Source: Candidatus Heimdallarchaeota archaeon (GTDB lineage Archaea; Asgardarchaeota; Heimdallarchaeia; Heimdallarchaeales; Heimdallarchaeaceae). From it: DNA of 24,000 nt. Below are positions 4,333-20,423 of this stretch, in pieces. Under the pieces are notes generated by a model. The model did no database searches, was not told the DNA's origin, and was given only the letters and a program-made list of their open reading frames with translations. Within the stretch, counting starts at the first letter, position 1. Each line of letters opens with the position of its first letter. The DNA is taken from NCBI GenBank assembly GCA_030668825.1, contig DAOVET010000015.1, forward strand, positions 135 through 24,134. Direction: 5' to 3'. A program made the position numbers and the translations under genes.

Positions 4333-4552
4333 TCATAAGCCACCGATACTCTAACTAATCACGATAGGAGATTTTGGGGAGATTTTAAAATCTTCCTCTC
4401 TGGCAGAATGGTCTATTAAAAAAATAGAATCAAACTTATTATCTGATAAGAGAGAACGAATAAACCAAGTTACTTTTCCATAGCCTGAAATAGCAAACTT
4501 CTTTCTAGTTATTATAAGCCTAGTAAAATAAAAAAAAGGAAAAAGAAATGGT

Positions 4553-4953: not shown

Positions 4954-5192
4954 GCTATGATTTGACAAAGTCGAAGTTCAAACATTAAAGGTGAATCTGT
5001 CGGATCCAGTAATAACCAGTAAACTAATTGTCTACTTCAAAGACTTGTATTCTAGTAAAAGATCAAGAAAAAATTATTGATCAATTTCTAACTTCTGAAA
5101 AAGAAGAGAAAAAGCTGCTAAGAGAAGATATTCTGATGAAATTTAGTAAACAATAGATTAAAATTCCAAAGATTTCCTCCCTAAATGAAAAA

Positions 5193-6996: not shown

Positions 6997-7969
6997 AACA
7001 GAAACACAAACGACCTTTTATCAAAGGTCTTTACCGTATTTGCAGTTATTTATTGCTATTATTTTTGTTTCATTCTCAGCAATCATTGTCGTATACCTAA
7101 TTAAACTAGGAGTTCCTCCTGCTGTTACAGCTATGTATAGAACTTTTTTTGCAGGGATTGGCGCTTTAATACTCTCTCTTTACAAGAAAAGAATAAAATG
7201 GATTGGTGAAAAAACTACAATTAAAAGATATCATTGGATAGTTCTTTCTGGATTATTACTTGCAGTACACTTTGCTACTTGGTTTATTTCCTTAGAATAC
7301 GTTAACGTAGCTATATCTACAACTTTAGTAGATGCAGTTCCAATTTTCCTTGCCATTTTTGGTTTTATATTTTTCAAGGAAAAAATAAATGCGATAGGAA
7401 TCGTAGGTATAGGTATTGCTTTTACAGGTGGTGCGCTCCTTGCATTTTCTTCTCCAGTAGCTGAAAATAGAAATTTGCTTTTAGGAATTATGTTCTCTCT
7501 TATTGGAGCTTTAACTGTAACATTTTATTTTCTAATAGGTAAGAAAATTCTCCAGGATTCACCTTTGTGGCCATATTTTGCTCTAGTAAACCTTGCATCT
7601 GCAATCTTTCTCTTATTTTATAATTTACTTGAAGGATATGAATTGTTTAGATATTCTGCAATTGTTTATCTTCTCTTTATTGTGTCTGCACTGGGGCCCT
7701 CTTTAATTGGTCACGCTACTTACAATTATACTTTAAAAAGACTACCTGCTTTTGTTGTAGGAGTAGCAATTTTGGGAGAACCAATTGGTGCCACTATACT
7801 TGGTGTTTTAATCTTCCCCCTAACTCAAACACCAGAATTAATAACTATCCTATTTGCATTAATTATTCTTACAGGAATCGTATTAACGTCAGTTTCTCAA
7901 TATATAAGTATTAAAAAATTTAGAAGAAAAAAGAAAAAAGAAGATGAATCAGATTCTATTCTCTCTTAG
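6986..7969 (+). CDS. EamA/DMT-family permease (about 10 TM)
   Basis: 327 aa of hydrophobic segments arranged as two similar halves, typical of drug/metabolite transporters. TTG start overlaps the apgM stop. Lys-rich cytoplasmic tail. Confidence 0.8.
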   Translation: MGLETETQTTFYQRSLPYLQLFIAIIFVSFSAIIVVYLIKLGVPPAVTAMYRTFFAGIGALILSLYKKRIKWIGEKTTIKRYHWIVLSGLLLAVHFATWFISLEYVNVAISTTLVDAVPIFLAIFGFIFFKEKINAIGIVGIGIAFTGGALLAFSSPVAENRNLLLGIMFSLIGALTVTFYFLIGKKILQDSPLWPYFALVNLASAIFLLFYNLLEGYELFRYSAIVYLLFIVSALGPSLIGHATYNYTLKRLPAFVVGVAILGEPIGATILGVLIFPLTQTPELITILFALIILTGIVLTSVSQYISIKKFRRKKKKEDESDSILS

Positions 7970-9154
7970 TAGCTCATCTAATCTATTCATTGCAATGTCT
8001 ATTTCTTCAAGAGTTGGTAAGTAGACCATTCTGAAACCATCATTTCCAAAAGGACCAAATCCCGATCCAAATACTGTTAGAATGTGCTTCTTTCTAAGAT
8101 AGTCAAAAACAAATTCCTTATCATTTTTCCATTTGAACTGGTCCATTGATATCATCGAAAAGATATAAAATGCTGCTTCTGGTTTATTTACAACAATTCC
8201 ATCCATTTCTGAAAGTCTATTGTAAATTAAATCTCTTCTTTCTTTTAGGATTTTAATAGTTTCTGGAAGATAAGAGCTCTGATCTTGTCTTAGAGCTTCA
8301 GCTCCTGCTTTTTGTAAAGGTGTTGAAGCACATAATCTAAGTCTAGTTAATTTATTTAACCCATCCCATGGTTCTTCTATTTTTCCCAAGGGATCATGAA
8401 TATATGCATACGCTAAACGCCATCCTGGTGCAAGGAAAACTTTACTGAAGCCATTATAAGCTATCACTGGAACATCTTTTGCCACTTCAGCTGTTGCAGT
8501 ATGTTTCAGACCTTCATCCAGAACAAGTAAATCATATGTTTCATCTGAAACAATACATGCATCGTATTCTCCAACTATGTCTACTATCTCTTTCAGCACT
8601 TTTTCAGGATATACTGAACCTGTGGGATTATTTGGTGTATTAAGAAATACTAATTTTGTTCTGTCGTTCATTAAAGATCGTATGTGATCTGGATCCGGAT
8701 AATAGTTATCTTCAACTGCTGTCTTGTAATATTGCATATCATTTCCAAATATAGTACCGTTACCAGAGTAACTGGGATAATGAATCCCAGGAATTAGTAT
8801 TCTATCTCCAGGATTAGTGAATGACATCAAAGTCATTTGAATACCTTCAGATACCCCAGCTGTTGCTATTACTTTATCAGCAGTAACCCCAACGTCATAT
8901 TTTCTGTTTTCATAGTCAGCAATTGCTTCTCTAAATTCTAGAATTCCCCGAGAATCTGCATAATAGTTATAATTTTCCTCTTCGACATAACGAAGCGGTT
9001 CTGTCAAAATTTTAGGGGTTTTAAAACCATATTTTATTGGATCCCCAATATTAAGCTTAATGATTTTATGCCCTTTAGCTTCAACTTCATCTGCTGCAGC
9101 AATTACATCTCTAATTGCATAACTAAAACCTGCTGTACGGTCTGATATTTTCAT
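7949..9154 (-). CDS. PLP-dependent class I/II aminotransferase (aspartate/alanine aminotransferase-like)
   Basis: 401 aa with LNIGDP, NPNNPTG (here NTPNNPTGSVY) and the Schiff-base lysine context YNGFSKVFLAPGWRLAY. Confidence 0.9.
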   Translation of the reverse strand: MKISDRTAGFSYAIRDVIAAADEVEAKGHKIIKLNIGDPIKYGFKTPKILTEPLRYVEEENYNYYADSRGILEFREAIADYENRKYDVGVTADKVIATAGVSEGIQMTLMSFTNPGDRILIPGIHYPSYSGNGTIFGNDMQYYKTAVEDNYYPDPDHIRSLMNDRTKLVFLNTPNNPTGSVYPEKVLKEIVDIVGEYDACIVSDETYDLLVLDEGLKHTATAEVAKDVPVIAYNGFSKVFLAPGWRLAYAYIHDPLGKIEEPWDGLNKLTRLRLCASTPLQKAGAEALRQDQSSYLPETIKILKERRDLIYNRLSEMDGIVVNKPEAAFYIFSMISMDQFKWKNDKEFVFDYLRKKHILTVFGSGFGPFGNDGFRMVYLPTLEEIDIAMNRLDELLRENRI

Positions 9155-9316
9155 TTTTGATATCCTCTATGATTCTGATAAATCTTTGAAAAAATAAAAT
9201 TATTGGTTTGAACTTATCGAATAGAAACATTAGAAATGATTCAATCTAGTTAAGCACTATTTCCCAGATATTACATCTATAAATAAAACAGAGTTATCAA
9301 TTTCTACTAAATACTG

Positions 9317-10726
9317 GTGTTATGTTTGCCGGCAATATCTAGTTGTAGCTTTTGTAGTAGTCCAGCACAATACTATTGTAAGTCATGTAAGAGAAAACTT
9401 TGTACTGAACATATTCATATATCAAATACAGTATACTTTTGCTCAACTTGTGAAACTGAGAGCCTTGATTCAAAATGTCATAAATGTGGTTCAGCTACAG
9501 AATTTTCCAGAAATGAGCCTACTAATAGCTGTGAATGGTGTAGATCAATAGATGTGGAAGATGGACTTCTTTATCATCAACAACTTCCACATTTGATATT
9601 TTCTTCATTTACTCTGTTGAACAAGAAGCTTGCACAAGTGTGGGATCTTACTCAGAAATATCTTGAAATTGTTAAGAACGTCTTTGAAATGAGAAAAGCG
9701 AAAATTATGCTTTTTGGTGATGTGGAAGATGAAATTACTTTACTTAGAAGCAAAATTTCAATATTCATTGATCAACTTGTCAAATTTGAAAATGATACTT
9801 TTGCAATGGTTGATGAGAAACTACGTGCAATCGGATATATGCGATTTACAAACGTGGATAACATAGAAAGAGGGGAAGAAATTCTTAATTTGCTTCAAAA
9901 TAGATTGGATTTACTTGATACAACCATAAAGTCAAAGTTTAATGAGATGGATGAAGATTTTCAAACCCTTAATCAAAAAGTAGATTTTCTTGGTTTTCAA
10001 TTTCGTTTGTTAAGTAAGATTTATCATCTCCTACCTGAAGACAAAGAAGAACATCTAATTTCTATTCTTCCACGGATTTGGCTAAAGAAGAACACTAAAT
10101 TACCAAAGAAATATCTTGTTGTTCTGACTAGTAAGAATTTATACTTGCTCCGAGAAAAGGGTTTGTTTAATGTTAGATTAAAAACAAAAGAAACCATAAG
10201 CTTGTCGTATATTATAAACAAGCAATATATTTCCAGATTATTATCTCGCAACATGTTTCGCTTCAAAACCAGATTAGATTCATATTCATTTCTTGGAAGA
10301 AAGAAGAGCCTTGAACAATTTATGATTTATTTTGAAATCATCGAAAATTACATAGATTATTCAATTCATAAATCCTCAATAATTGAAGACCTCAAGTACT
10401 ATTCACTCACTATTAATGAATTAAAAACCAACATACAAAGAAATGTAAGTCACCTTCGTGCTTATTTGCTTAATAAACGTGAATTGAAACGCGAATTATA
10501 CTGGAGAGAAGGACAAGATGCGAGATTCAAGAAACTGTTTGAGCAACTACTAGCTGTAGAACGAAAGATACATCGATTAAATGAAACCAGAAGGTATGGT
10601 TCTCGAGGTACCAAAGGTATAGATGGATTATTAAGGAAACTAACCAGTGAACATCATAGGCTCAAACGACATTTAGATGATATTCAAAGAAAAAGTGAAG
10701 AATTTGATGACATGTGGGAACTTTGA
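9317..10726 (+). CDS. Hypothetical multi-zinc-finger / coiled-coil / PH(GRAM/GLUE)-like domain protein
   Basis: GTG start. The N-terminus has C-x2-C-x7-C-x2-C-x4-C-x2-H-x-H followed by three further CxxC pairs (aa 10-75). Aa about 90-245 and 350-469 look like coiled coil. Aa about 248-345 (KKYLVVLTSKNLYLLREKG...ISLSYI...NMFRFKTRLDSYSFLGRKKSLEQFMIYFEII) has the beta-sandwich-plus-C-helix pattern of PH-like domains. Function unknown. Confidence 0.6.
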   Translation: MLCLPAISSCSFCSSPAQYYCKSCKRKLCTEHIHISNTVYFCSTCETESLDSKCHKCGSATEFSRNEPTNSCEWCRSIDVEDGLLYHQQLPHLIFSSFTLLNKKLAQVWDLTQKYLEIVKNVFEMRKAKIMLFGDVEDEITLLRSKISIFIDQLVKFENDTFAMVDEKLRAIGYMRFTNVDNIERGEEILNLLQNRLDLLDTTIKSKFNEMDEDFQTLNQKVDFLGFQFRLLSKIYHLLPEDKEEHLISILPRIWLKKNTKLPKKYLVVLTSKNLYLLREKGLFNVRLKTKETISLSYIINKQYISRLLSRNMFRFKTRLDSYSFLGRKKSLEQFMIYFEIIENYIDYSIHKSSIIEDLKYYSLTINELKTNIQRNVSHLRAYLLNKRELKRELYWREGQDARFKKLFEQLLAVERKIHRLNETRRYGSRGTKGIDGLLRKLTSEHHRLKRHLDDIQRKSEEFDDMWEL

Positions 10727-10750
10727 GAACTTAATATGGTTCTTATCCAC

Positions 10751-11131
10751 TTAATTCTTCCATACTTTAAGAAACTCAGGCATTATCTCAAACTTTACAA
10801 TTGGGATGCTTAACCATTTAGGATCTGTAGCATCATTAGAGAATTCAATTGTTTCATCTGTTGCTGTTTTATACCTTAAGAATGACTTTGTAGGCATTTC
10901 TTCTTCAACAGTCCACAGAATTATTGGAAGTGCATTAAGTTCGTAATATCCTAAACTTGTGTTAAAAACGAAGTATATTGTCCTATCAGCTTCCTCAAAA
11001 TGACCAATATATCCCGCAATTCGGTCTGGGCCAACACTGGAAATAACTAATCTAACCAAATCTTTCAAAGATGCTAGTTTGATTCCAGCCGGTGGTTTTA
11101 GATTCTTAGTATTTTCTGCCATAGTAATCAC
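10751..11131 (-). CDS. Hypothetical protein (co-oriented, 27 nt downstream of atpK)
   Basis: 126-aa ORF with plausible coding composition and no motif I can recognise. Start is either GTG 11131 or ATG 11122. Confidence 0.5.
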   Translation of the reverse strand: MITMAENTKNLKPPAGIKLASLKDLVRLVISSVGPDRIAGYIGHFEEADRTIYFVFNTSLGYYELNALPIILWTVEEEMPTKSFLRYKTATDETIEFSNDATDPKWLSIPIVKFEIMPEFLKVWKN

Positions 11132-11158
11132 TGAAAAAAGGAAAGTAAAGAGAGGGAA

Positions 11159-11458
11159 TTAGAATACAAGTAGGATAGCTACTAGTAGACCATAAATAGC
11201 CACGGCTTCAATCAACACTATGAAGAGAAAAGCTTTTCCGAAAATTTCAGGTTTTTCCACAATAGCACCTATGGCTGCACTTCCTGCCATCGCCATTCCT
11301 ATGGCGGCTGCAGCTCCAGCTATACCAACTGCTAGAGCTGCAGCGATTGGGGTTAAATCTGGAGTTTGAGCTAAAGCTGTTTCTGAGGCAAGAATCACTA
11401 AACTTGTTATTATTGTCATAAATGCAAAATTTCTTTTAGATTTCTTTTGAAAACGCAT
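11159..11458 (-). CDS. atpK: A/V-type ATP synthase proteolipid subunit K (c-subunit)
   Basis: 99 aa. Gly/Ala-rich helix IAAALAVGIAGAAAAIGMAMAGSAAIGAIVEKPE, then a second helix FLFIVLIEAVAIYGLLVAILL with the ion-binding Glu. GGTG lies 8 nt upstream of the ATG. An extra hydrophobic N-terminal segment (MTIITSLVILASETALA) is present. Confidence 0.85.
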   Translation of the reverse strand: MRFQKKSKRNFAFMTIITSLVILASETALAQTPDLTPIAAALAVGIAGAAAAIGMAMAGSAAIGAIVEKPEIFGKAFLFIVLIEAVAIYGLLVAILLVF

Positions 11459-11580
11459 ACAATTACACCTATTTTATAAGACCAACTATCGTAGGTCAAT
11501 TTAAAAATTTCGGAAAGACAGCAAATCATGTTTTGAGTTAAAATAAATTCTGAAACAATACATATAATAACCACGAAAGC

Positions 11581-11588
11581 TTAAATAT
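11581..11588 (+). promoter_or_regulatory. Candidate archaeal TATA box (TTAAATAT) for the ESCRT-III operon
   Basis: AT-rich TATA-like octamer about 32-39 nt upstream of the 11620 ATG, preceded by a purine-rich CGAAAGC (BRE-like). Sequence pattern only. Confidence 0.3.
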
Positions 11589-11619
11589 GAATATACAATA
11601 ACTAAACGCAGTGATTTAG

Positions 11620-12234
11620 ATGTTCCGTGACTTTATGGGTTGGCTTTTGGGTACAAAGAAGAGTCCTCGTGACCACATAATTAATCTTCGATTAACTGTA
11701 AGAAGATTAGAAAGAGCACAAAGGAAACTTTCTCGAGATGAATCCAAGATGCAGTTGAAAATGAAACAAAACATCCAACGAGGAGATTTGGAATCTGCAA
11801 GATTATTTGCTACTGATATTGTACGCAACAGAAGATGGGAATTTGGTTATCAGAAACTAGTCTCGCGTATGAATGGTCTAATCTTTAAATTAGAACGAGC
11901 TGATACAGCAGCAAGCATGGCTGAAGAAATGCATGGTATTGCTTCTGCTTTACGAACAGCAAATGCTCAATTACAGATTCCAGATTTAGATAGAGTTATT
12001 CAAGATATGGAAAGTTCAATTGATGGAATCGAAGAGTCAACAGGAACAATTGAAGATGGTATTGACGATTTACTAATTGCTGATACTGATCCAGCTGAAG
12101 TCGATAGATTAATTGAACAAACAGCTGCTGAATTAGGTGTTTCCACTCAAGCTGGATTACCAACAGTTGGTGTAGTGCAAACAGATGATTTAGAGGACGA
12201 AATCCAGAAATTAAGAAGAAGAGAAGAGGATTAA
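11620..12234 (+). CDS. ESCRT-III subunit, Vps2/Vps24/Vps46 (CHMP1-3)-like, with C-terminal MIM1-type helix
   Basis: 204 aa. The basic N-terminal hairpin ...RRLERAQRKLSRDESKMQLKMKQNIQRGDLESARLFATDIVRNRR parallels CHMP2 ...ELDRERQKLE..EKKIIADIKKMAKQGQMDAVRIMAKDLVRTRR. Acidic C-terminal half. The terminal DDLEDEIQKLRRRE parallels the CHMP2 tail DLEERLKNLRRD (the MIM1 consensus as I recall it is (D/E)xxLxxRLxxL(K/R)). Confidence 0.9.
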   Translation: MFRDFMGWLLGTKKSPRDHIINLRLTVRRLERAQRKLSRDESKMQLKMKQNIQRGDLESARLFATDIVRNRRWEFGYQKLVSRMNGLIFKLERADTAASMAEEMHGIASALRTANAQLQIPDLDRVIQDMESSIDGIEESTGTIEDGIDDLLIADTDPAEVDRLIEQTAAELGVSTQAGLPTVGVVQTDDLEDEIQKLRRREED

Positions 12235-12247
12235 AAGGTGAATAAAA

Positions 12248-12901
12248 ATGGTTAAGAATTGGCTTTTTGGAAAAAAAAGAAAAGAAGATGCTGATGCATT
12301 ATCTACACTCAAAGGACAACAAAACAGATTACAAGCAGAAGCTAGAAATCTTGAAAGGCAATCAGATGAACAGAAAATCTTAGCCTCAAAAATGCTCAAA
12401 GCTGGTAACAAAGCTGGAGCAAGACAAGCTCTTAAAAGAAGAGCTGTTTTCATGAAAAGGCTGAATACAGTTCATAACACAGGGATGAATTTACAAGCTC
12501 AGATAGATAGTATTCAAACAGCTACTTCAACCGCAGAAACTGTAAAAGCTATGGAACTTGGTACTAAAGTTGTTGGGGAGAAAATCAAAAGCGTTTCTCC
12601 TGAGAGAACAGAACGTGTTATGGATTCCGTAATGGAACAGAGAGATCAAATTGAAATGATGACTGAAGCTCTATCTGATCCAAGCTTATCTGAAGGTATT
12701 CTAGATTTTGAAGATGATGCAGCTATTGATGAGCAGTTAGCTCAATTAGAAGCTGAGATGGATTTAGGTACAACAACAAGCTTACCTGATGTTAGTGGTC
12801 TTCCTTCAACTCCTGTTGGAACAGGTGACAAAGAAGAAGATACATCAGAGCTTGAAGCTGAGCTTGAGGGATTAAAGAAGAAAATGAAGGAAGATAATTA
12901 G
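12248..12901 (+). CDS. ESCRT-III subunit, Vps20/Vps32/Vps60 (Snf7/CHMP4)-like
   Basis: 217 aa. KAGNKAGARQALKRRAVFMKRLNTVHNTGMNLQAQIDSIQTATSTAETVKAMELG parallels CHMP4 KNKRAALQALKRKKRYEKQLAQIDGTLSTIEFQREALENANTNTEVLKNMGYA. Acidic C-terminus. AAGGTGA lies 7 nt upstream of the ATG. Confidence 0.9.
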   Translation: MVKNWLFGKKRKEDADALSTLKGQQNRLQAEARNLERQSDEQKILASKMLKAGNKAGARQALKRRAVFMKRLNTVHNTGMNLQAQIDSIQTATSTAETVKAMELGTKVVGEKIKSVSPERTERVMDSVMEQRDQIEMMTEALSDPSLSEGILDFEDDAAIDEQLAQLEAEMDLGTTTSLPDVSGLPSTPVGTGDKEEDTSELEAELEGLKKKMKEDN

Positions 12902-13026: not shown

Positions 13027-14178
13027 GTGAATCACGTGTCTGCTCAAGGATTAATAGATCATGCAAGAGATTTTGCAGTCAAAGCTTATTCCTTTGATAA
13101 AGAAAAAAACTACAGTGAAGCTATTCCACACTATTTAGATGCTGCTGAAGCTTTAATGAAAGCCATAAGATTTGAAAGAAACCCTCAAGTTGCTCGTTCT
13201 CTCAAGAAGAAAGCCAATATGTACATTAGTAGAGCAAGGGAACTAAGGGAACTTCTAGAGAAGAGAAAAGAAAGGAAATCCACTGCAGGAAGTGATGAGG
13301 AGGAAAAACTAGAAAATGCTATATCTGATATAATCGTTACAGAGAAACCAAATATTACTTTAAAAGATATAGCAGGTCTAGAAACCGCAAAGCAAACCTT
13401 GAGAGAAGCTATTGTTTTACCTCTGATGCGACCTGATTTATTCTCTGGAGCAAGAAAACCTTGGAAAGGTATTTTGCTTTTTGGTCCTCCTGGTTGTGGT
13501 AAAACTCTTTTAGCAAAAGCAACTGCAGCTGAAGTAGAAGCAACTTTCTTCAATGTTAGTGCATCTTCAATCATTTCAAAATGGCTTGGTGAATCAGAGA
13601 AATTGGTTAAACAGCTTTTCGAATTAGCAGATGAAAAACAACCCAGTATTATTTTTATTGATGAAGTTGATGCTTTAGCCGGCGCCAGAGGTGGAGAACA
13701 TGATGCAATGCGTAGAGTTAAAACTGAGCTCTTAACATCAATGGACGGATTATCGAGTTCCGAAACTGACAGAATAGTTACTGTAGGTGCTACTAATATG
13801 CCTGAATCTATAGACGGAGCATTCAGAAGAAGATTCGAGAGAAGAATTTACATTCCTTTACCAGATTTACCAGCTCGTTCAGCTATTTTTGTTTTCAATA
13901 CCAGGGGTGTTGAACTAGCTGAAGATGCTGATTTCGAAGTTCTAGCAGAAATTACAGAAGGTTATTCAGGTTCTGATATAGCAATGGTATGTAGAGAAGC
14001 AATCATGACTCCAATCAGAGAACTTGATATGGCTGGAGCTATTGAAGATACTTCAGTAGCTGCCCGGTCAGTAACCCAAGATGATTTTCTTGAAGCAATT
14101 GAATCAATTAACCCCTCTGTAAGTGATGATGAAATAGAAAAATACGATAACTGGAATGAAGAATTCGGCAGCGCATGA
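13027..14178 (+). CDS. vps4: Vps4-like AAA+ ATPase with N-terminal MIT domain
   Basis: 383 aa. MIT-like three-helix N-terminus (AVKAYSFDKEKNYSEAIPHYLDAAEALMKAIRFE...ANMYISRARELRE). Walker A GPPGCGKT, pore loop KWLGESEK, Walker B IIFIDEVD, second region of homology GATNMPESIDGAFRRRFERRIYIPLP. An alternative GTG start at 13036 has better spacing to GAGGT (13021-13025). Confidence 0.95.
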   Translation: MNHVSAQGLIDHARDFAVKAYSFDKEKNYSEAIPHYLDAAEALMKAIRFERNPQVARSLKKKANMYISRARELRELLEKRKERKSTAGSDEEEKLENAISDIIVTEKPNITLKDIAGLETAKQTLREAIVLPLMRPDLFSGARKPWKGILLFGPPGCGKTLLAKATAAEVEATFFNVSASSIISKWLGESEKLVKQLFELADEKQPSIIFIDEVDALAGARGGEHDAMRRVKTELLTSMDGLSSSETDRIVTVGATNMPESIDGAFRRRFERRIYIPLPDLPARSAIFVFNTRGVELAEDADFEVLAEITEGYSGSDIAMVCREAIMTPIRELDMAGAIEDTSVAARSVTQDDFLEAIESINPSVSDDEIEKYDNWNEEFGSA

Positions 14179-14951
14179 TTCTAGAGGTTAAATCCATGTC
14201 TACCACTGAGAAGAAGAAGCCCAAGAAAGAGAGATCATCTGAAATAGATTTAAAAAAATTAAAAGATGAAAAAGAGATTTCAGATGAGAAATTAAAACTA
14301 ATTGAAGCCAGTATTAAAGGTTTGGAGATTACAGCTGAAGAATTGAAAGCTACTATGCCTGTTGATGCTGTTTTTATGAAAGAAGATCTCTCTAAAGATC
14401 AAAGGGCTATGCTTGAACTAGAATTTGAGGAAGAGCTTCCAAAATGGGTGAAGAGACCTTGGATGTATATCAAACCTAAGAAAACTGATCAAATTGAATC
14501 ATGGCTCCAGAGTTGGTCTGCGATAGTATTGGACTACTCCCGTATTTTTGTGATTCACATAATTAATATCAACGATTTGAGAAGTGGTCACCCCTTCAAT
14601 AACAAAAGTTTAGGTAAGAGATTAACCCTTGCACAGGTAAGAAGTATCATTGATCATTTAGTTCAACAGGATATTGCTCGTTGGTTAGATGAAAAAACAA
14701 AAACAAGGGCTCGCATTTATTGGAAATCAAATGAAGAATGGGCAGATGCACTATTAGACTTCATGCTAGATACTGGAAGAGTGGTTGAAATACACTCACT
14801 TTACGATTTAACTCAGTTGGAACAAAATTGGGGGAATTTGCCTGCTGATGATCTTATTATTGTGTGCGAAATGCTAGTAGAACGTAAAGTTGCTCGTTGG
14901 TTAAACAAAGAAAAAACAATAATTCAGTTTGAAGCTGATAAAGTGTTTTAG
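14175..14951 (+). CDS. ESCRT-II subunit Vps25-like (tandem winged-helix), with Lys/Glu-rich N-terminal extension
   Basis: The C-terminal ~170 aa WLQSWSAIVLDYSRIF...HPFNNKSLGKRLTLAQVRSIIDHLVQQDIARWLDEKTKTRARIYWKSNEEWADALLDFMLDTGRVVEIHSLYDL...LIIVCEMLVERKVARWLNKEKTIIQF aligns by eye with human VPS25 (LAAWCSLVLSFCRLH...PLFNNVKLQRKLPVESIQIVLEELRKKGNLEWLDKSKSSFLIMWRRPEEWGKLIYQWV...VFTLYEL). The ATG overlaps the vps4 stop (ATGA). An alternative ATG at 14196 is preceded by GAGGT. Confidence 0.85.
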   Translation: MILEVKSMSTTEKKKPKKERSSEIDLKKLKDEKEISDEKLKLIEASIKGLEITAEELKATMPVDAVFMKEDLSKDQRAMLELEFEEELPKWVKRPWMYIKPKKTDQIESWLQSWSAIVLDYSRIFVIHIININDLRSGHPFNNKSLGKRLTLAQVRSIIDHLVQQDIARWLDEKTKTRARIYWKSNEEWADALLDFMLDTGRVVEIHSLYDLTQLEQNWGNLPADDLIIVCEMLVERKVARWLNKEKTIIQFEADKVF

Positions 14952-14966: not shown

Positions 14967-15704
14967 TTATAGTCCCATTAAACCTGGAAACCAGAATTTT
15001 ACTCCTTCAGAATAGCTACGGTCAACTCTAGCTATGCTATTTTCTTCAAAGAATTTTAAACATCTATCTATTCGTTCTTCAGTCCAACTTGTTCTCATGA
15101 GTAAATCTTCCTTTGTAACAAAACCAACTCTGGATGCATAATTTAGAATAACATCATGGTCTGGACTAAACTCAACAGGAACAAATTCAACAATCTTCAA
15201 TCCTGAATCTAACACTCTATATGGTGGGATTAATTGAGTATTGATTAATTTCTCCAAGGATCGATACATATCATCAATTGAAACCATCCTCCCAGGACGA
15301 GTTTTATTTAGCTGTGTGAATAGTTCTCCGATTGCCATAATTCCACCGTTTTCTGATATCATCTGTTGCCCTATTTCAAGAATTTCATTAGCTAATACAT
15401 CAAAGAAGCCCTTTCCAGTAAGTTTATCTTTGAGAGTTGGAGTTTCTTTCCAGTCAAAACGTCCAATTTCGGTGGGTAATCCTAATTCTTCTCGCAGATT
15501 TGCTAATTTATCATAATAATCTTTATTTTCAGAGATCTTATCACCGTATTTTTTCTCAAACTTTTTCAGTTGTTTTTTGACTTCACTAATATTATTTACC
15601 ATCTGTTCTAATTCTTTAATCATTAGCTCTGCCGCTTTTACTTGAAAAGCTGACTTAATTTTGATCTTTTTCTCTATATCTCTTAAACCCACTTCTATCT
15701 CCAA
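14967..15704 (-). CDS. ESCRT-II subunit Vps22/Vps36-like (EAP30 domain)
   Basis: 245 aa. N-terminal coiled-coil helix, then FFDVLANEILEIGQQMISENGGIMAIGELFTQLNKTRPGRMVSIDDMYRSLEKL...LKIVEFVPVEFSPDHDVILNYASRVGFVTKEDLLMRTSWTEERIDRCLKFFEENSIARVD...KFWFPGL. This parallels human EAP30/VPS22 ([33 protein letters not shown]...VSQDDLIRAIKKL...YLIQSVPAELNMDHTVVLQLAEKNGYVTVSEIKASLKWETERARQVLEHLLKEGLAWLD...HYWLPALF). Confidence 0.85.
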   Translation of the reverse strand: MEIEVGLRDIEKKIKIKSAFQVKAAELMIKELEQMVNNISEVKKQLKKFEKKYGDKISENKDYYDKLANLREELGLPTEIGRFDWKETPTLKDKLTGKGFFDVLANEILEIGQQMISENGGIMAIGELFTQLNKTRPGRMVSIDDMYRSLEKLINTQLIPPYRVLDSGLKIVEFVPVEFSPDHDVILNYASRVGFVTKEDLLMRTSWTEERIDRCLKFFEENSIARVDRSYSEGVKFWFPGLMGL

Positions 15705-15761: not shown

Positions 15762-16076
15762 TTATACAGTGTTTGATAATTTTAAAAGCCATTTCTTTAT
15801 CTTTTCAGTTAAAGAGCTACTCTCCCTTGGTGAAAGAAAAGCTGCAAGTTTGTTTTTATATTTGTTAAAATATGAATTATAGACATTCATCATTTCTTCA
15901 TGGATTTGCTTACCTTCTTCTCCTAAATTCTTGATTTCGTATGAAATATCTTCCAATTCCTCAAGAATATAGCCCATATCTATCTTTATCTCTATCATGT
16001 TGATTAATTCAAACATTTCTTTTCTAATGTTAACAAATATCTCGTTAATAGAGCTAGTTCTTTCCAAGTAATTCAC
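15762..16076 (-). CDS. Small helical hypothetical protein between the ESCRT-I-like and ESCRT-II-like genes
   Basis: 104-aa ORF (GTG start), Glu/Lys/Asn-rich and predicted helical. Co-oriented with and 64 nt downstream of the UEV-Vps28 gene. No recognisable motif. Confidence 0.5.
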   Translation of the reverse strand: MNYLERTSSINEIFVNIRKEMFELINMIEIKIDMGYILEELEDISYEIKNLGEEGKQIHEEMMNVYNSYFNKYKNKLAAFLSPRESSSLTEKIKKWLLKLSNTV

Positions 16077-16140: not shown

Positions 16141-17589
16141 TTAAAGTTCTTTCAATACTCTTCGAAAGTCATTTAACCAACGAGCTGCTTGAAATTCTAA
16201 TTTTTCGCAATCTTCTTCTTTAATGATCTCCTGCGGCTTATATTTTCCTATAATTTCACGCCAATTATTCATATCTCCAATAACCCAATGGTCTTTTGGT
16301 ATTGAAGGAAATGTTTTCAGAATGTGAATCATTTCTTCGATGTCTGCTATTATGAGATCTGCTCTAGCTACTGATCTTAATCTAGTTAAATCAATAAGTT
16401 CAATCGCAGATGAAACGAAATCAGCTGTTTTAGATGGGATTTTCTTGAGTGTATCAAATGGAATTGAGCTGGTATCTGCAGTTTCTTTCCCTTCAACAAC
16501 CATGAGTTGTTTGATTCCCTTTTGATATCTATTATTTAGATTCTCTCGTTTCACAAAATCATCTAAATTAAATCCTACTTTTTCTAATTCTAATCTTGTT
16601 TTGAAAATTCCTCTAATAAGCGCACGAAGTTGCTTTCTATAAGCAATCTGCTCAATTTCACTTTTTTCGTAACTGCTAACTAGATTGTCTAAAGTTGCAA
16701 TTGAAGCAAACAGATCAGCTTCCAAATTCAATATTTTTTCTTCTGCTTTTGTCATGTCACCACTTGAGCTACTTTTAACTTGAGTGAGTTGTTTCTCAGC
16801 TATAAAACCTTTTTTAGCATATCTTTTATGTAATTTGAGGTAATCAATATTAGTCATGTCACCATCCTCAAATTTTTCCTGTATTATTTCTAGAGTATCT
16901 TGGACAGATAATGATTCAGCTCTCAAATCGTCTTCTAATGATATAGAAATCTCTTTAGTTCTACTTTGTACAGCTATTCCGCCTTCTTTCAATAGAGCTT
17001 CTCTTTCTTTTTCTATATCTCTGGAAACATGCTCTATTTTATCTTGATAATTGACAATTGTTTTATCGATAGATCGTCTTTCTTCCTCAATTCTTGGATC
17101 TATACTTGCGAAAGAAGCTTGAGGTATTGTCTTCACAGGAATTGTTGCTCTAGGTAATGTTGAAAATCTTTGTTCCCCTTTTGGTTTCTTAGTCTTTGTC
17201 TTGTATGGTTTAGCAGGAACATTGATGAAAAGTTGTTTTATATCAATCATAACCTGATAAATATGATACCTAATTTCCCATTCTGCAAGAAGACGCATAC
17301 TTAATGTGCCATCTTCATCCACATTAGGGTGATTTACTTTAGGAGTAATATCAACAAATGGAGGTATTTCAGGGAAACCATCCTGAATGTAAATGTTGGC
17401 AAAAATTGGTATCTCAGTACCTTCTATTGTTCCAACATAGCCTTTCCATTGTTTCAAATTACCTCTAACAGGTTCGAAATTTATTTGTTTATCGAATACT
17501 AATTGCATTTCATTTGCAAGATGGAAATCGTCTGTGGAAATTTTGTTCACCTTTCTAATTATATCTCTAAATAACTTGATACCAATCAA
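16141..17589 (-). CDS. ESCRT-I-like fusion protein: N-terminal UEV (catalytically inactive E2 fold) + Pro/Lys linker + coiled-coil stalk + C-terminal Vps28-like domains
   Basis: Aa 40-125 NLKQWKGYVGTIEGTEIPIFANIYIQDGFPEIPPFVDITPKVNHPNVDEDGTLSMRLLAEWE match the UBC core (YPFKPPKV..HPNI...G.ICLDIL), with HPN kept but the active-site Cys replaced by Ser97. Aa 285-482 (LFASIATLDNLVSSYEKSEI...; ADFVSSAIELIDLTRLRSVARADLIIADIEEMIHILKTFPSIPKDHWVIGDMNNWREIIG...CEKLEFQAARWLNDFRRVL) parallel human VPS28 (LFAVVKTMQALEKAYIKD...; IADVVSLFITVMDKLRLEIRAMDEIQPDLRELMETMHRMSHLPPDFEGRQTVSQWLQTLSG...VRQMLFDLESAYNAFNRFL). Confidence 0.8.
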   Translation of the reverse strand: MIGIKLFRDIIRKVNKISTDDFHLANEMQLVFDKQINFEPVRGNLKQWKGYVGTIEGTEIPIFANIYIQDGFPEIPPFVDITPKVNHPNVDEDGTLSMRLLAEWEIRYHIYQVMIDIKQLFINVPAKPYKTKTKKPKGEQRFSTLPRATIPVKTIPQASFASIDPRIEEERRSIDKTIVNYQDKIEHVSRDIEKEREALLKEGGIAVQSRTKEISISLEDDLRAESLSVQDTLEIIQEKFEDGDMTNIDYLKLHKRYAKKGFIAEKQLTQVKSSSSGDMTKAEEKILNLEADLFASIATLDNLVSSYEKSEIEQIAYRKQLRALIRGIFKTRLELEKVGFNLDDFVKRENLNNRYQKGIKQLMVVEGKETADTSSIPFDTLKKIPSKTADFVSSAIELIDLTRLRSVARADLIIADIEEMIHILKTFPSIPKDHWVIGDMNNWREIIGKYKPQEIIKEEDCEKLEFQAARWLNDFRRVLKEL

Positions 17590-17630: not shown

Positions 17631-18635
17631 TTACTCAGATAATTGTAAAACTATTTTGATTGGTTGGGCTAAATTCTTGTCTAGAACGAATACAATAGCC
17701 TTTTTAGAATCCAGCGCATCTTCAAGTAATGATTCAACCTTTAACAGTTTTCCTTGCACCATTAAGTCTGGTTTTTCTAACCCATAAGTCAACATCAATC
17801 TCATTCTGAGCTCTTTTACAGTTTCAGTTGGAAGCGCCACAAACTCGATTTGTTCTAATTTATACATCTCTCCACAGGCTGGACAGTCCTTGGTTTTTTC
17901 TAGTTCTATAATTGTAGTAGCATTATGAAGACCATCATAGAAGAGATAATTTTCCAATTTTTCACCTAGTTCCAGAATTAACTTTATTGTTTCCTGAGCC
18001 ATTATCCCCCCAATAATTGATGATAATGTAGCAACAGCTGGCAATGGTGGCTCTACATCTATTTCTTTCCTCTCCTTTTTCCTTTCTTCCCCAAATGGAG
18101 AGCATGCTTGAGCTAACTCTTCGTCTGGTACCAAAGGCTGGCATTCGAAACAAGCTGTTTCATACGGAATAATTACTTGTGCATTACCCAAGAAAGCAAA
18201 CATACCCCCCATAACAAGTGGTTTTTTTACTCGAATAGCCATCGAATTGATCCATCTTCTTCCAATAAAAGTATCTAAACAAGCCACTATAACATCTGCT
18301 TGCTCATAAACTGATACTGAAATATTCTCCATCTTTTTATGATAAAAATCAATCTCGATTTTGGGGTTTATTTCTTTCAATCTTTGTACAGCTGTTTCTG
18401 ATTTTGATTTACCAACATCCTCATCTTTGAACAATAATTGTCGATTTAGATTCGAAACTTCAATTGTATCAAAATCAATAATCGTAAGTTTACCTATTCC
18501 TGAAGAGACAAGTACAGTTGCTGCATAGCTCCCTATTGCTCCAACCCCCACTAGAACAACAGAACTATTGTCAAGTTTTAGTTGATCCCATCCTGGAATA
18601 AGTTGTTGTCTTGAGTAGCGCTCATCTCCATCCAT
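17631..18635 (-). CDS. E1-like ubiquitin-activating enzyme (ThiF/MoeB/UBA fold) with C-terminal extension
   Basis: 334 aa. YSRQ...VVLVGVGAIGSYAATVLVSSGIGKLTIIDFDTIEVSNLNRQLLF (Rossmann GxGxxG plus NLNRQ). Zn-site pairs CFEC (162-165) and CPAC (251-254). Cys178 lies in a charged crossover-like loop. About 75 extra C-terminal residues. Sits immediately downstream of the ubiquitin-like gene. Confidence 0.9.
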   Translation of the reverse strand: MDGDERYSRQQLIPGWDQLKLDNSSVVLVGVGAIGSYAATVLVSSGIGKLTIIDFDTIEVSNLNRQLLFKDEDVGKSKSETAVQRLKEINPKIEIDFYHKKMENISVSVYEQADVIVACLDTFIGRRWINSMAIRVKKPLVMGGMFAFLGNAQVIIPYETACFECQPLVPDEELAQACSPFGEERKKERKEIDVEPPLPAVATLSSIIGGIMAQETIKLILELGEKLENYLFYDGLHNATTIIELEKTKDCPACGEMYKLEQIEFVALPTETVKELRMRLMLTYGLEKPDLMVQGKLLKVESLLEDALDSKKAIVFVLDKNLAQPIKIVLQLSE

Positions 18636-18774
18636 TTAATGAACTCCTTGAATGACTCACATAGAAAGAACTGATATAAGTTTCTTTTTACTATCACACT
18701 GAAAACAACGAGAAAATCTATAAAAAGAGCTTTTTATGAAAGAAAATTAAATTAAAAGAAGTGGTTAGATAAAA

Positions 18775-19011
18775 CTAAAGTCCACCTTTAGTTCTAGCAA
18801 TAAGATAGCATTTATCGCCATCCATCATTCCTGTTTGTTTTAGTATCTCACTGTCATCAAGTTGCTTACCATGGAAAACTATAATGACGGTGTTCGCAGG
18901 AATTTTCTTCTTTTTAGCAACTTCTCTCTTTAATTGAGCAACTGTTGAATGTGGATCAACATCTAAATCTATTTTTCCTCCACCAATTGCTGTTACTACA
19001 GTTATTCTCAC
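18775..19011 (-). CDS. Ubiquitin-like modifier (beta-grasp), C-terminus ...RTKGG-L
   Basis: 78 aa (GTG start). MRITVVTAIGGGKIDLDVDPHSTVAQLKREVAKKKKIPANTVIIVFHGKQLDDSEILKQTGMMDGDKCYLIARTKGGL aligns along its full length with ubiquitin ([76 protein letters not shown]). This includes the GKQL (K48-equivalent) motif and a di-glycine followed by one extra residue. Confidence 0.85.
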   Translation of the reverse strand: MRITVVTAIGGGKIDLDVDPHSTVAQLKREVAKKKKIPANTVIIVFHGKQLDDSEILKQTGMMDGDKCYLIARTKGGL

Positions 19012-19120: not shown

Positions 19121-19519
19121 TTAATAGGTTGTCTTCTTTTCCCTTTCTCCCTTTCTTTTTATTGTTATAGAGGAAGGAATCCCCTCTATCTCTCTTTCTA
19201 GCTTTTTGACACCTAATCTCGATATCTGTTTTCCCTCAAGAAAACCAATCTTAATCATATATAACACGTTTTTGAAAATTGTTTCTGCAGTTGGTTTTTT
19301 AGATAGATTCTCATAGAGATTGATCCAGTAATTATAAGCATCTGGGCCCAAAAAATATTCCATTAACGCCAATTTATCTTTTTCTTCTATACTTGCTGGA
19401 GATTCTTCTGCCTCTTTTAACTCTTCCATACGCTGTTTTCTTTGTTCAGCAATTTGCATTAATTCTTTTGCTTTTCTTTGCTTAATTTTCTCCAGTTCAT
19501 CATCAGTTGTCATTGGCAA
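19121..19519 (-). CDS. PDCD5/TFAR19-like dsDNA-binding-domain protein
   Basis: 132 aa. The charged N-terminal helix ELEKIKQRKAKELMQIAEQRKQR and the core LSKKPTAETIFKNVLYMIKIGFLEGKQISRLGVKKLEREI...ITIKRKG parallel PDCD5 ([39 protein letters not shown]...VKFNRRK). Start is TTG 19519 or ATG 19513. Confidence 0.7.
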   Translation of the reverse strand: MPMTTDDELEKIKQRKAKELMQIAEQRKQRMEELKEAEESPASIEEKDKLALMEYFLGPDAYNYWINLYENLSKKPTAETIFKNVLYMIKIGFLEGKQISRLGVKKLEREIEGIPSSITIKRKGEREKKTTY

Positions 19520-19580: not shown

Positions 19581-20275
19581 CTAAGATTTGTTTATAGGTA
19601 AATGTTTCTTAACAGTTAGGAATCTAGATAAAACATTAAATTTTTCTGCATATTTTACTCCACACTTCATTCCATTGGATCGCCGATTAACATCTAACCA
19701 ATCATCAACTTGTTGCCAATCATAAAAATCACCATAAAGTTTGGCTACTTCCTTAACTTTCTCAAAAGAGGAGGTTATATCTATGTAGATTGTTGGCAAA
19801 GGTGATACTTCCTCATGATACATGAAGATTGGAATATGAAGTGGAGGTCTATAAGGATCTAGCGGCTCTGTTATCTTTGGAATACGCGCATATGTGATTG
19901 CATCATAGAGTATTTGAGCAGTTCCTCTGTGATTCGGATGTCTTGTGTTCATTGACCATGTTACTACTGCATCTGGTTTGACCTCAGCTATCACTTTAGC
20001 CATTTTCAGTGCACTTTCTCTTGTAGCTCTCACGGATGTATCACCATATCCTAGAAAAAGAGTTTCACAACCAATTATCTTCCCAACATCTTTCCCTTGT
20101 TTTTCTCTTATTTCTTTCACTTCAGAAAAAGACATATCGTTAAAATGTGAAGCCATTTCACCACTAGCACAACTTTATCTCCCTTCTCAACATGATTAAC
20201 TAAAGTACCTATGCACCCAACTTCATCATCAGGGTGTGCTACACATGCTAAAATTGTTTTTCTTCCAGTATTCAT
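19581..20275 (-). pseudogene. PIG-L/LmbE-family N-acetylglucosaminyl deacetylase, interrupted by a 1-nt frameshift
   Basis: A 52-codon ORF from ATG 20275 encodes the family N-terminus MNTGRKTILACVAHPDDEVGCIGTLVNHVEKGDKVVLVV (AHPDDE metal motif) and then runs out of frame to a stop at 20117. The 191-aa track ORF (19581-20156) carries the rest (..LGYGDTSV...AEVKPDAVVTWSMNTRHPNHRGTAQ..) in the -1 frame. One added nucleotide between 20120 and 20174 (for example in the A3 run at 20156-20158) restores a single ORF of about 230 aa. Confidence 0.7.
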
Positions 20276-20423
20276 TGAGATATCTTACCTTTTGAGTTTT
20301 TAAATTTCTTCTTTTATTAATTTTAATTTTTATCACTTTGAATTAAGTCTCTTGCCAAAAAATACTTTAAATAATCAAAACAAAACATAACAGACAAGAA
20401 CGCTTTGTCTTGAGGCCATCTTA

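Follow-up and report, generated by a model that had tools for sequence, protein, structure and literature searches.

Ubiquitin–ESCRT gene clusters of Asgard archaea are the best prokaryotic model for the pre-eukaryotic origin of ubiquitin-directed membrane trafficking, and that of Heimdallarchaeote AB_125 is reported in Zaremba-Niedzwiedzka 2017 and in Hatano et al. 2022. The UEV protein encoded in the AB_125 cluster (HeimAB125_14070, orthologue of the ESCRT-I fusion described below) binds the Heimdall ubiquitin via V45, the V45D substitution abolishing the binding, and the genome has two catalytic E2s at other sites (Hatano et al. 2022, PMC9192718). The E1/E2/RING cascade of Caldiarchaeum subterraneum was reconstituted in vitro, uncleaved pro-ubiquitin not being activated, and C-terminal UBL domains were identified in archaeal E1-like proteins (Hennell James et al. 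2017, PMC5654768).

The DNA analysed here, called the window, is a stretch of 24,000 nucleotides from Candidatus Heimdallarchaeota archaeon (assembly GCA_030668825.1, contig DAOVET010000015.1, positions 135 to 24,134 of the forward strand). It contains the genes for ubiquitin and an E1, separated by 139 bp, both of which are members of a ubiquitin–ESCRT cluster of a Heimdall-group Asgard archaeon (Table 1). The cluster is of the Heimdall type, comprising, by Pfam, two ESCRT-III genes, genes for Vps4, Vps25, and Vps22, and one for a fusion of a Cys-less UEV with Vps23 and Vps28. This arrangement has already been published for close relatives, and the finding is therefore correct yet ordinary for the lineage: the observation is real and correctly read, but already known, and the published picture is unaltered. 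The window is one more well-assembled example of a ubiquitin–ESCRT cluster and adds small details, namely a minimal E1 composed of an adenylation domain, a 31-residue Cys loop, and a ubiquitin-fold domain (UFD), a ubiquitin whose tail comprises 0–2 residues among close orthologues and whose K48 equivalent is not conserved, and a catalytic E2 encoded at a conserved distant locus next to 7-deazaguanine (archaeosine-type) biosynthesis genes.

The gene for a PDCD5-like protein lies immediately upstream of the ubiquitin–E1 pair throughout the lineage (synteny in 8 related loci). The 104-aa protein encoded between Vps22 and the ESCRT-I fusion had no match in a Pfam search, and neither an Rfam family nor a tRNA gene was detected in the window. 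At the left edge of the window lies a gene for a V-ATPase subunit, with a TTG start. The membership of the pair in the known Asgard ubiquitin–ESCRT cluster had been missed by the first-pass annotation.

Table 1. Features of the ubiquitin–ESCRT cluster and of its surroundings in the window
Feature	Position	Strand	Evidence
469-aa protein: N-terminal B-box-like (RING-like fold) Cys/His module, coiled coil, possible PH-like domain	9317..10726	+	
ESCRT-III (Snf7), two genes	11620-12234 and 12248-12901 (11620..12901)	+	Pfam Snf7 5.8e-18 and 8.3e-23
Vps4 AAA ATPase, MIT + AAA + Vps4_C	13027..14178	+	Pfam AAA 2.5e-42, MIT 1.5e-11, Vps4_C 1.6e-9
ESCRT-II Vps25	14175..14951	+	Pfam ESCRT-II 3.5e-21
ESCRT-II Vps22/36-like subunit (EAP30)	14967..15704	-	Pfam EAP30 2e-20
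Conserved 104-aa protein, between Vps22 and ESCRT-I fusion	15762..16076	-	101-104 aa in all related loci
ESCRT-I fusion: UEV + Vps23 core + Vps28	16141..17589	-	Pfam UQ_con 1.9e-10, VPS28 9e-10, Vps23_core 4.6e-5
E1, 334 aa, ThiF adenylation fold	17631-18635	-	
E1 C-terminal UFD, aa 256-334 (79 residues), beta-grasp fold	17634..17870	-	AF2, Foldseek, orthologue alignment
E1 adenylation (ThiF/Rossmann) domain, aa 1-255	17871..18635	-	Pfam, orthologue alignment, AF2, Foldseek
E1 crossover loop, aa 166-198, with Cys178 (codon 18102-18104)	18042..18140	-	
Ubiquitin, 78 aa, GTG start	18775..19011	-	Pfam PF00240, PDB matches, orthologue alignment
PDCD5-like 132-aa protein	19121..19519	-	NCBIfam PRK04239 4.4e-6, under curated cutoff

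By its sequence, the small protein is a true member of the ubiquitin family and not a MoaD or ThiS. It matches Pfam PF00240 with 53.8 bits (gathering threshold 25.4, E 1.7e-14) over residues 3–73 of 78, and additionally Rad60-SLD, with no ThiS match in Pfam; in the PDB it matches the Caldiarchaeum ubiquitin (2mqj/6fj7, E about 4e-15) and also eukaryotic ubiquitin. The alignment with ubiquitin claimed in the first-pass annotation was reproduced with the human protein over residues 5–78, the GKQL motif with Lys49 included, and with PDB chains over ubiquitin residues 5–77. Lys49, regarded there as the equivalent of K48, is indeed present in the window ubiquitin, but in the 12 close orthologues that a word-based search with this protein yielded the column varies between K, H, N, and Q, so neither a K48-type chain nor any other chain type can be deduced from it. 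The counterpart of the I44 patch, Val45, is almost invariant in the same alignment, and so are G76 and G77.

The gene ends with AGA ACT AAA GGT GGA CTT TAG (RTKGGL and stop), i.e., the di-glycine G76–G77 is followed by a single extra residue, Leu78. The same end is found in 7 independent public assemblies, each 99.3–99.9% identical to the window, which excludes a sequencing or stop-codon artefact and bears out the reading of the terminus given earlier. The removal of one residue, presented at that time as implying a processing protease, is needed for the GGL allele, but the tail itself is not conserved: the residues after GG differ between orthologues (none, L, S, F, Y, or YC), 5 of the 12 close orthologues are tail-less, and across 37 archaeal ubiquitin genes, to which the survey was widened by extracting ORFs from the loci examined, the tail measures 0 to 14 residues. 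Processing is thus a requirement of this allele and not a defining trait. The fixation of GGL in the 7 assemblies of this population, the lack of a processing protease among the local genes, and the in vitro binding of free ubiquitin by the AB_125 UEV (PMC9192718) would also suit a ubiquitin whose main function is to bind or regulate ESCRT-I non-covalently, conjugation being prevented by Leu78. Such a role is very unlikely given an intact and highly conserved E1 gene only 139 bp away and the tail-less GG ends of close orthologues. Furthermore, single-residue tails of eukaryotic ubiquitin precursors are routinely trimmed. In Caldiarchaeum a longer tail is trimmed (PMC5654768). Very probably, the two genes, embedded in the ESCRT cluster, provide a eukaryote-like ubiquitin system with its modifier and its activating enzyme.

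The adenylation fold, the two CxxC pairs, and Cys178 ascribed to the E1 in the first-pass annotation were all recovered, the role of Cys178 being that of a candidate. The adenylation domain, matched by Pfam ThiF over aa 10–252 (E 3e-64), carries the GxGxxG loop (G30–G35), the N-terminal RYxRQ arginine motif, and the nucleotide/Mg residues D56, N62, R65, K78, and D121. Across 59 Asgard orthologues there is no variation at these columns, with G30, G32, A33, and G35 representing the loop, or at the zinc cysteines C162/C165 and C251/C254. The AF2 model of the full-length protein has a pLDDT of 87, exceeding 90 over most of the adenylation domain. In Foldseek it matches UBA3 with a TMq of 0.78–0.82 over more than 400 columns, compared with 0.65 for ThiF/MoeB, in the first 260 columns only, and the best sequence matches rank in the order UBA3 (4e-35), Uba1 (3e-33), ThiF (9e-30), and MoeB (2e-26).

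Orthologues of this E1, the nearest NCBI-labelled of which show 74–76% identity, are named in public records 'ThiF family adenylyltransferase' or 'molybdopterin/thiamine biosynthesis adenylyltransferase', and the top NCBIfam names are likewise MoeB and ThiF, as would be expected of a MoaD/ThiS-like protein with a MoeB/ThiF-like adenylyltransferase acting as a sulfur-carrier system in molybdopterin, thiamine, or tRNA thiolation. The position of Cys178, which would correspond to that of the Cys in the crossover loops of ThiF and MoeB, points the same way. However, the scores lie far under the curated cutoffs (159 vs 449 bits for MoeB NF006444, 141 vs 275 for ThiF TIGR02356, and 127 vs 647 for MoeZ), the partner belongs to the Pfam ubiquitin family and not to ThiS, and a separate ThiS gene is found in one relative 3.3 kb from the ubiquitin–E1 pair. 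Neither a rhodanese domain nor moa or thi genes are found nearby; the E1 carries a UFD, and its genomic context is that of ESCRT. The sulfur-carrier reading, against which the first-pass annotation had wanted the pair checked, is thus extremely improbable and was rejected on the NCBIfam cutoffs, the partner family, the UFD, and the context, as was a SAMP-type one. The data support the classification of the window E1 as a eukaryote-like E1 and not as a MoeB/ThiF equivalog.

Cys178 is invariant in the 59 Asgard orthologues and aligns with the crossover Cys of a Caldarchaeales E1; its invariance and position make it a candidate for the thioester cysteine. The window E1 has no separate catalytic-Cys domain: the distance from the first CxxC to the PAVA helix is about 31 residues vs about 85 in UBA3, and the crossover loop has more in common with MoeB/ThiF than with the eukaryotic catalytic-Cys domain. 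The loop around Cys178 is modelled by AF2 at a low pLDDT of 55–65, and when compared alone with the PDB only its flanking conserved segments align, giving no residue-level equivalence with the Cys of UBA3.

The C-terminal extension, for which a ubiquitin-fold domain had been proposed in the first-pass annotation (aa 260–334), proved to have this fold when modelled. Modelled alone, aa 256–334 give a pLDDT of 91.4 (AF2), and their best Foldseek matches in the PDB are the UFDs of UBA3 (2nvu_B, 3fn1_A, 2lq7, and 1y8x_B; TMq 0.73–0.77) and of the SUMO E1 (6gum_B and 5fq2_B), the TMq over both groups being 0.72–0.77. The extension is kept full-length in more than 100 orthologues, and its residues G285, P289, and P325 are invariant in the 59 Asgard ones. 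Judging from the model, the UFD is presumed to be a docking site for an E2.

The only E2-fold protein within the window is the ESCRT-I fusion, with Pfam scores of 40.9 bits for UQ_con (gathering 27) and 39 for VPS28 (gathering 24.5); in public annotations it begins 13 codons downstream, with a length of 469 aa. Its alignment with catalytic E2s confirms that it lacks the catalytic Cys, Leu occupying the respective column and HPN being retained. The lack of Cys is explained by its being the ubiquitin-binding UEV head of ESCRT-I, as the pair lies within the known Asgard ubiquitin–ESCRT cluster. The fusion presumably reads the ubiquitin signal. Searches of the window with Pfam, and by tblastn with the Rpn11 and RING proteins of Caldarchaeales, revealed neither a UQ_con protein that has a catalytic Cys nor a RING or JAB/MPN protein, and none was found in the 10 kb past its right edge. 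The window lacks an operon of the Caldiarchaeum type, in which the RING srfp and Rpn11/JAB adjoin ubiquitin, E1, and E2. This agrees with the earlier statement that the window contains no catalytic E2, E3, or deubiquitinase, which needs one qualification: the 469-aa protein encoded upstream of the ESCRT-III genes has a weak B-box-like module (PF22586 7e-4 and PF00643 1.6e-3, both sub-gathering, besides PF23142 at 0.077). Found at the same length and adjoining ESCRT genes in two related loci, it is the sole conceivable E3-like or adaptor candidate within the window, as far as its sequence suggests.

The prediction that the E2 is encoded elsewhere was borne out in relatives. The lineage has its own E2 family, a free-standing protein of about 155 aa with the Cys retained, encoded at a separate conserved locus. 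In a relative that shares the gene order of the window, this locus and the E1 gene lie about 186 kb apart on one 701-kb contig. The complete genomes of Ca. Heimdallarchaeum aukensis and endolithica contain the E2 as well. The E2 clusters (P0207, P0201, and P0214) come from DOMB18-1, ATLA15-1, and other samples and the window is carried by the ZHAN22-2 metagenomes and by GCA_021399335.1, so the presence of the E2 rests on relatives, the MAG of the window being fragmented. In other Asgard lineages the two enzymes are neighbours: in Freyarchaeum, Loki, and Heimdall LC_2 the orthologous E1 adjoins a catalytic E2 (HPN...C), and Hodarchaeales, Loki, and Hermod have E2–RING–ubiquitin–E1 clusters of about 7 kb with an orthologous E1.

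Neither a RING E3 nor a JAB/MPN protease was found near the ubiquitin–E1 or E2 loci of the lineage. The Caldarchaeales Rpn11, the Caldarchaeales srfp, and the Freyarchaeum srfp had no tblastn match in the window or in more than 40 lineage E2 loci, and srfp matches were obtained in the Hod, Loki, Hermod, and Hel loci. With the Caldarchaeales Rpn11 no JAB was detected in any Asgard locus examined, which, as loci and not whole genomes were scanned, means only that JAB is not clustered with the ubiquitin–E1 or E2 genes. Two proteins adjoining the lineage E2 were considered as RINGs and rejected, one of 49–54 aa having no Cys and one of 202 aa having only a C-terminal zinc ribbon.

The lack of E2, E3, and deubiquitinase genes in the window and the adjacent 10 kb, together with a short, MoeB/UbaA-like crossover loop in place of a full catalytic-Cys domain, could also be taken to mean that no enzyme besides the E1 is needed to activate ubiquitin and attach it to targets or to the E1 itself, as in archaeal SAMP/UbaA sampylation (the option of fewer steps raised in the first-pass annotation), and the Caldiarchaeum E1 does auto-ubiquitylate without E2 in vitro (PMC5654768). 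Such E2-independent conjugation is nevertheless quite unlikely, since a UFD of the E2-binding type is kept in all orthologues, orthologous E1s adjoin catalytic E2s in other Asgard lineages, a Cys-bearing E2 is kept in this one, and the score with NCBIfam UbaA (NF047750) is 130 bits, the cutoff being 450.

In the preferred reading, that of a eukaryote-like ubiquitin system, ubiquitin would be made with the extra Leu78 and a hydrolase encoded elsewhere would remove it, freeing the carboxylate of Gly77. The E1, whose single adenylation domain combines the arginine-finger motif with the active site, is probably a homodimer like MoeB, ThiF, and UBA5; it would adenylate Gly77 with ATP-Mg, and its invariance and position suggest that Cys178 in the short crossover loop may then accept the ubiquitin. 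The UFD would recruit the free-standing catalytic E2 of about 155 aa from its separate locus. The Cys-less UEV head of the neighbouring fusion would recognise target-linked ubiquitin, a binding shown for the AB_125 orthologues, and ESCRT-I would be followed by ESCRT-II, ESCRT-III, and Vps4, all of them encoded alongside.

For the AB_125/Heimdallarchaeaceae lineage a more far-reaching scenario can be proposed, though it is unlikely: an ancestral E2–RING–ubiquitin–E1 cluster may have been dismantled, ubiquitin and E1 moving into the ESCRT cluster and the small RING E3 and a dedicated JAB protease being perhaps lost, leaving an E1–E2-only cascade for ESCRT sorting. The UEV might then act as an E2 partner (cf. 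Mms2–Ubc13), or the B-box-like 469-aa protein as a non-canonical E3, and a non-JAB peptidase might trim the short, variable tail.

Of the characterised enzymes, ThiF and MoeB of E. coli (1zud and 1jw9) resemble the window E1 in the adenylation fold (TMt 0.90–0.93), the zinc CxxC pairs, the short crossover loop, and, likely, homodimer formation. They differ in having no UFD, in their partners, ThiS and MoaD, and in serving sulfur transfer, and the window E1 stays under the NCBIfam cutoffs of their families. The adenylation domain is best matched, in sequence as in fold, by human UBA3 (3gzn, 3dbl, 2nvu, and 1y8x), and in fold the UFD of the window E1 comes closest to that of UBA3, to which the E2 Ubc12 binds. 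UBA3, however, is only about 25% identical, pairs with APPBP1 in a heterodimer, and contains a catalytic-Cys insertion of about 85 residues, whereas the window E1 is of a single chain type with a 31-residue loop.

With Caldiarchaeum the window shares a ubiquitin precursor that extends beyond GG and an E1 comprising an adenylation domain, CxxC pairs, a crossover Cys, and a C-terminal UBL/UFD; the Caldarchaeales orthologue aligns with the window E1 over the full length (28% identity, E 5e-53). The Caldiarchaeum genes differ in forming a contiguous set of five (Rpn11–Ub–E2–E1–srfp), of which the window has only ubiquitin and E1, and in having no ESCRT-I or ESCRT-II context. Their tail is of 9 residues and not 1, and their E1 has about 55–70 extra residues after the crossover Cys, absent from that of the window.

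AB_125 is a separate organism, and the likeness to it, assessed at the level of components, extends to ESCRT-III, Vps4, Vps25, Vps22, the Cys-less UEV–Vps23–Vps28, and the V45 patch of ubiquitin, which are common to both. The UEV motif of AB_125 is nearly identical to that of the window (TPKVNHPNVDEDGTLSMRL), and in both cases the catalytic E2s are encoded elsewhere, the lineage E2 carrying the motif FHANVF...RICVGVL of HeimAB125_07740.

The ubiquitin and E1 genes are separated by a 139-bp spacer in a window of ca. 33% G+C, and the starts and stops of both gene models match those of orthologues. Several public contigs assembled independently, from ENA ZHAN22-2 metagenomes and NCBI MAG GCA_021399335.1, share 99.3-99.9% identity with the window, and all encode the same GGL end, so the ubiquitin C-terminus is no artefact of assembly or of a miscalled stop codon; the first-pass annotation had raised the possibility of a miscall. 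On sequence grounds the 78-aa protein is a ubiquitin: it scores 53.8 bits with Pfam ubiquitin PF00240 (gathering score 25.4), its top single-domain PDB matches are Caldiarchaeum ubiquitin (2mqj, 6fj7, 6fnn; E ca. 4e-15) followed by eukaryotic ubiquitin, and over its full length it shares 33% identity with human ubiquitin. Val45, which corresponds to the I44 patch, hardly varies among orthologues. Lys49, singled out earlier as the K48 equivalent, is indeed present in the GKQL motif, but 12 close orthologues have K, H, N or Q at this position, which hence provides no evidence for K48-type chains.

Features of the window in and around the ubiquitin-E1 locus
Feature	Position	Strand	Remarks
Stretch of 860 bp	4333-5192		between the V/A-ATPase subunit I gene and the Roadblock/LC7 gene; no ORF >45 aa, no Rfam or tRNA match
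469-aa protein	9317-10726	+	N-terminal Cys/His module
ESCRT-III (Snf7), two genes	11620-12901		
Vps4	13027-14178		
Vps25	14175-14951		
Vps22/36-like	14967-15704		
104-aa ORF	15762-16076	-	between Vps22 and the UEV-Vps28 fusion
UQ_con + Vps23_core + Vps28 fusion, 482 aa	16141-17589	-	
E1, 334 aa	17631-18635	-	ThiF adenylation domain and C-terminal beta-grasp domain
Ubiquitin, 78 aa	18775-19011	-	GTG start; ends ...RTKGGL, then TAG
PDCD5-like protein, 132 aa	19121-19519	-	
PIG-L family deacetylase gene	19581-20275	-	split into 52-aa and 191-aa pieces overlapping out of frame

The tail following the di-glycine is lacking in 5 of the 12 close orthologues and is L, S, F, Y or YC in the others, while among 37 archaeal ubiquitin genes in the compared loci its length ranges from 0 to 14 residues; judging from these alignments, it is not a conserved functional feature. 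The Caldiarchaeum E1 did not activate the uncleaved ubiquitin precursor (PMC5654768), and since one residue, Leu78, follows the di-glycine here, trimming would be needed before activation. The earlier claim of obligatory processing thus holds for this allele and does not extend to a conserved tail.

The E1 matches Pfam ThiF over aa 10-252 (E 3e-64) and, among solved structures, is closer in sequence to UBA3 (4e-35) and Uba1 (3e-33) than to ThiF (9e-30) and MoeB (2e-26). A sulfur-carrier system, in which the enzyme would be a MoeB/ThiF-type activator, is unlikely: NCBIfam names MoeB and ThiF first, yet every model falls far under its curated cutoff (MoeB 159 vs 449 bits, UbaA 130 vs 450). In the AlphaFold2 model, built from an alignment of 59 Asgard orthologues of 44-96% identity (pLDDT 87, pTM 0.81), UBA3 ranks first by Foldseek, with TMq 0.78-0.82 across more than 400 columns, while ThiF and MoeB are confined to columns 1-260 (TMq 0.65). 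The enzyme is a minimal, eukaryote-like E1. Invariant in the 59 orthologues are the GxGxxG loop, the adenylation residues, C162/C165, C251/C254 and C178, and, in the C-terminal extension, G285, P289 and P325. Cys178, the putative catalytic cysteine, aligns with the crossover cysteine of a Caldarchaeales E1. It lies in a short MoeB-like crossover loop, modelled with low confidence, and not in a separate cysteine domain, since only ca. 31 residues separate the first CxxC from the next helix, compared with ca. 85 in UBA3 and with 55-70 more than in the window's E1 in that Caldarchaeales enzyme. More than 100 full-length orthologues were found, labelled Heimdallarchaeota, Heimdallarchaeaceae, Kariarchaeaceae, Thor, Loki or Freya. 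A 1958-bp Logan contig (P0098) encodes a 417-aa protein joining ubiquitin (PF00240) to a ThiF E1 domain 48% identical to the window's E1, which is either natural or an artefact of read-through or assembly.

The suggestion that the E1 C-terminal extension is a ubiquitin-fold domain (UFD) is borne out at the level of fold. Residues 256-334 folded alone reach pLDDT 91, and their closest PDB matches are E2-binding UFDs, those of UBA3 (2nvu_B, 3fn1_A, 2lq7, 1y8x_B; TMq 0.73-0.77) and of the SUMO E1 (6gum_B, 5fq2_B); both outrank ubiquitin itself. Residues 315-372 of a Caldarchaeales E1 (locus L094, 5675 onward) match the window's ubiquitin directly in BLASTP (35% identity, E 3.7e-5), so that a trace of the ubiquitin-like character of this E1 domain is visible in the sequence itself.

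Pfam matches place the pair inside an Asgard ESCRT cluster, flanked by Ras-like GTPase, Roadblock and V/A-ATPase genes, and Ca. Heimdallarchaeum aukensis and MAG CSMAG_1225 share this gene order. The E2-like head of the fusion protein lacks the catalytic Cys, as annotated earlier; it retains HPN and has Leu at the Cys position, and is therefore a UEV, a Cys-less E2 variant. The true start of the fusion is ambiguous, as the mechanical ORF begins at TTG and public calls on identical sequence begin 13 codons later (469 aa). Ubiquitin acting as a non-conjugated ligand, e.g. of this neighbouring UEV, is an unlikely reading of a locus in which it is paired with an E1.

Several neighbours deserve mention. 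The 104-aa ORF is conserved, at 101-104 aa, throughout the related loci; it matches no family and may be an as yet unrecognised ESCRT-I or ESCRT-II accessory subunit. The 469-aa protein, constant in length and adjoining ESCRT genes in relatives, starts with C10xxC13x7C21xxC24x4C29xxH32xH34 (sub-threshold B-box matches PF22586, 7e-4, and PF00643, 1.6e-3), continues with further CxxC pairs, a coiled coil and a weak match to a PH-like domain, and is a possible ESCRT adaptor or E3-like protein. The PDCD5-like gene (NCBIfam PRK04239, 4e-6, under cutoff) lies directly upstream of ubiquitin-E1 throughout the lineage (L001-L007, L105). Ca. Heimdallarchaeum aukensis has an unbroken PIG-L gene (235 aa; L007, 14783-15490), and two loci of the window's own population (L001, L003) have ca. 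100 bp in place of 19671-20295; the gene seems to be undergoing decay or deletion in this population.

The gene order is RING-Ub-E2-E1 in Freyarchaeum, E2-E1 in a Loki MAG, and Ub-E1 with E2 4 kb upstream in Heimdall LC_2, and all three E2s carry HPN...C. A profile built from them retrieved more than 1000 Asgard E2s, several labelled Heimdallarchaeaceae. Hodarchaeales, Loki and Hermod pack a small RING protein together with E2, ubiquitin and E1 into ca. 7 kb (L064-L077, L085, L089; about 6000-12300 each), and Caldarchaeales have the order Rpn11-Ub-E2-E1-RING. In the window's lineage the E2 (153-156 aa) keeps the Cys, with HAN often replacing HPN, and occupies a separate conserved locus adjoining QueC, PTPS, GCHY-1, radical-SAM genes and RadA, always beside 7-deazaguanine (archaeosine-type) biosynthesis genes. 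In this free-standing E2 (L026 6001-6462, L097 8001-8468, L011 8001-8471) the AB_125-type lineage has HAN (FHANVF...RICVGVL), and Heimdallarchaeum retains FHPNF. Contig JAUVXV010000001.1 (701,036 bp) has the E2 at ca. 144 kb and the orthologous Ub-E1-ESCRT cluster at ca. 331 kb; this E2 also occurs in AB_125 and in Ca. Heimdallarchaeum aukensis and endolithica, both with complete genomes. By tblastn over all compared loci, E1, ubiquitin and RING never lie within 6 kb of it. The lineage has split the ancestral operon genes between the ESCRT cluster and the remote E2 locus. The prediction that the missing components are encoded elsewhere is thus upheld for the E2 in relatives; JAB/Rpn11 and RING homologues were found neither in the window, nor within 10 kb past its right edge, nor near the lineage's E2, which leaves them unlocated in the surveyed loci and implies no absence from the genome. 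E2-independent, sampylation-like conjugation, for which a window devoid of catalytic E2 leaves room, is unlikely beside these E2s and a UFD of the E2-binding type.

Alongside the observed folds, conservation, neighbourhoods and E2s of relatives, the chemistry of these exact proteins is one we infer, and E2-dependent conjugation is very probable as a whole. Leu78 would be trimmed off, a probably homodimeric E1 would adenylate Gly77 and hand ubiquitin to Cys178 as a thioester, the UFD would mediate transfer to the remote E2, and ubiquitin conjugated onto targets would be read by the adjacent ESCRT-I UEV; published work shows the UEV-ubiquitin interaction for orthologues.

The first-pass interpretation, incomplete though largely right, concerns a system that is already known. 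Hatano et al. (2022) described such a cluster in Heimdallarchaeote AB_125, whose UEV-Vps23-Vps28 fusion (HeimAB125_14070) binds Heimdall ubiquitin via V45 and which encodes two Cys-bearing E2s outside the cluster (PMC9192718). The UEV motif of HeimAB125_14070 is almost identical to that of the window's fusion, and the E2 HeimAB125_07740 shares FHANVF...RICVGVL with the lineage's E2. The homologous E1/E2/RING cascade of Caldiarchaeum was reconstituted by Hennell James et al. (2017), who showed that Rpn11 processes its pro-ubiquitin, used UBA3 as the template for a model of its E1, and described UBL domains at the C-termini of archaeal E1-like proteins (PMC5654768). In view of these two reports, the system had been described before, and the finding reads it correctly.
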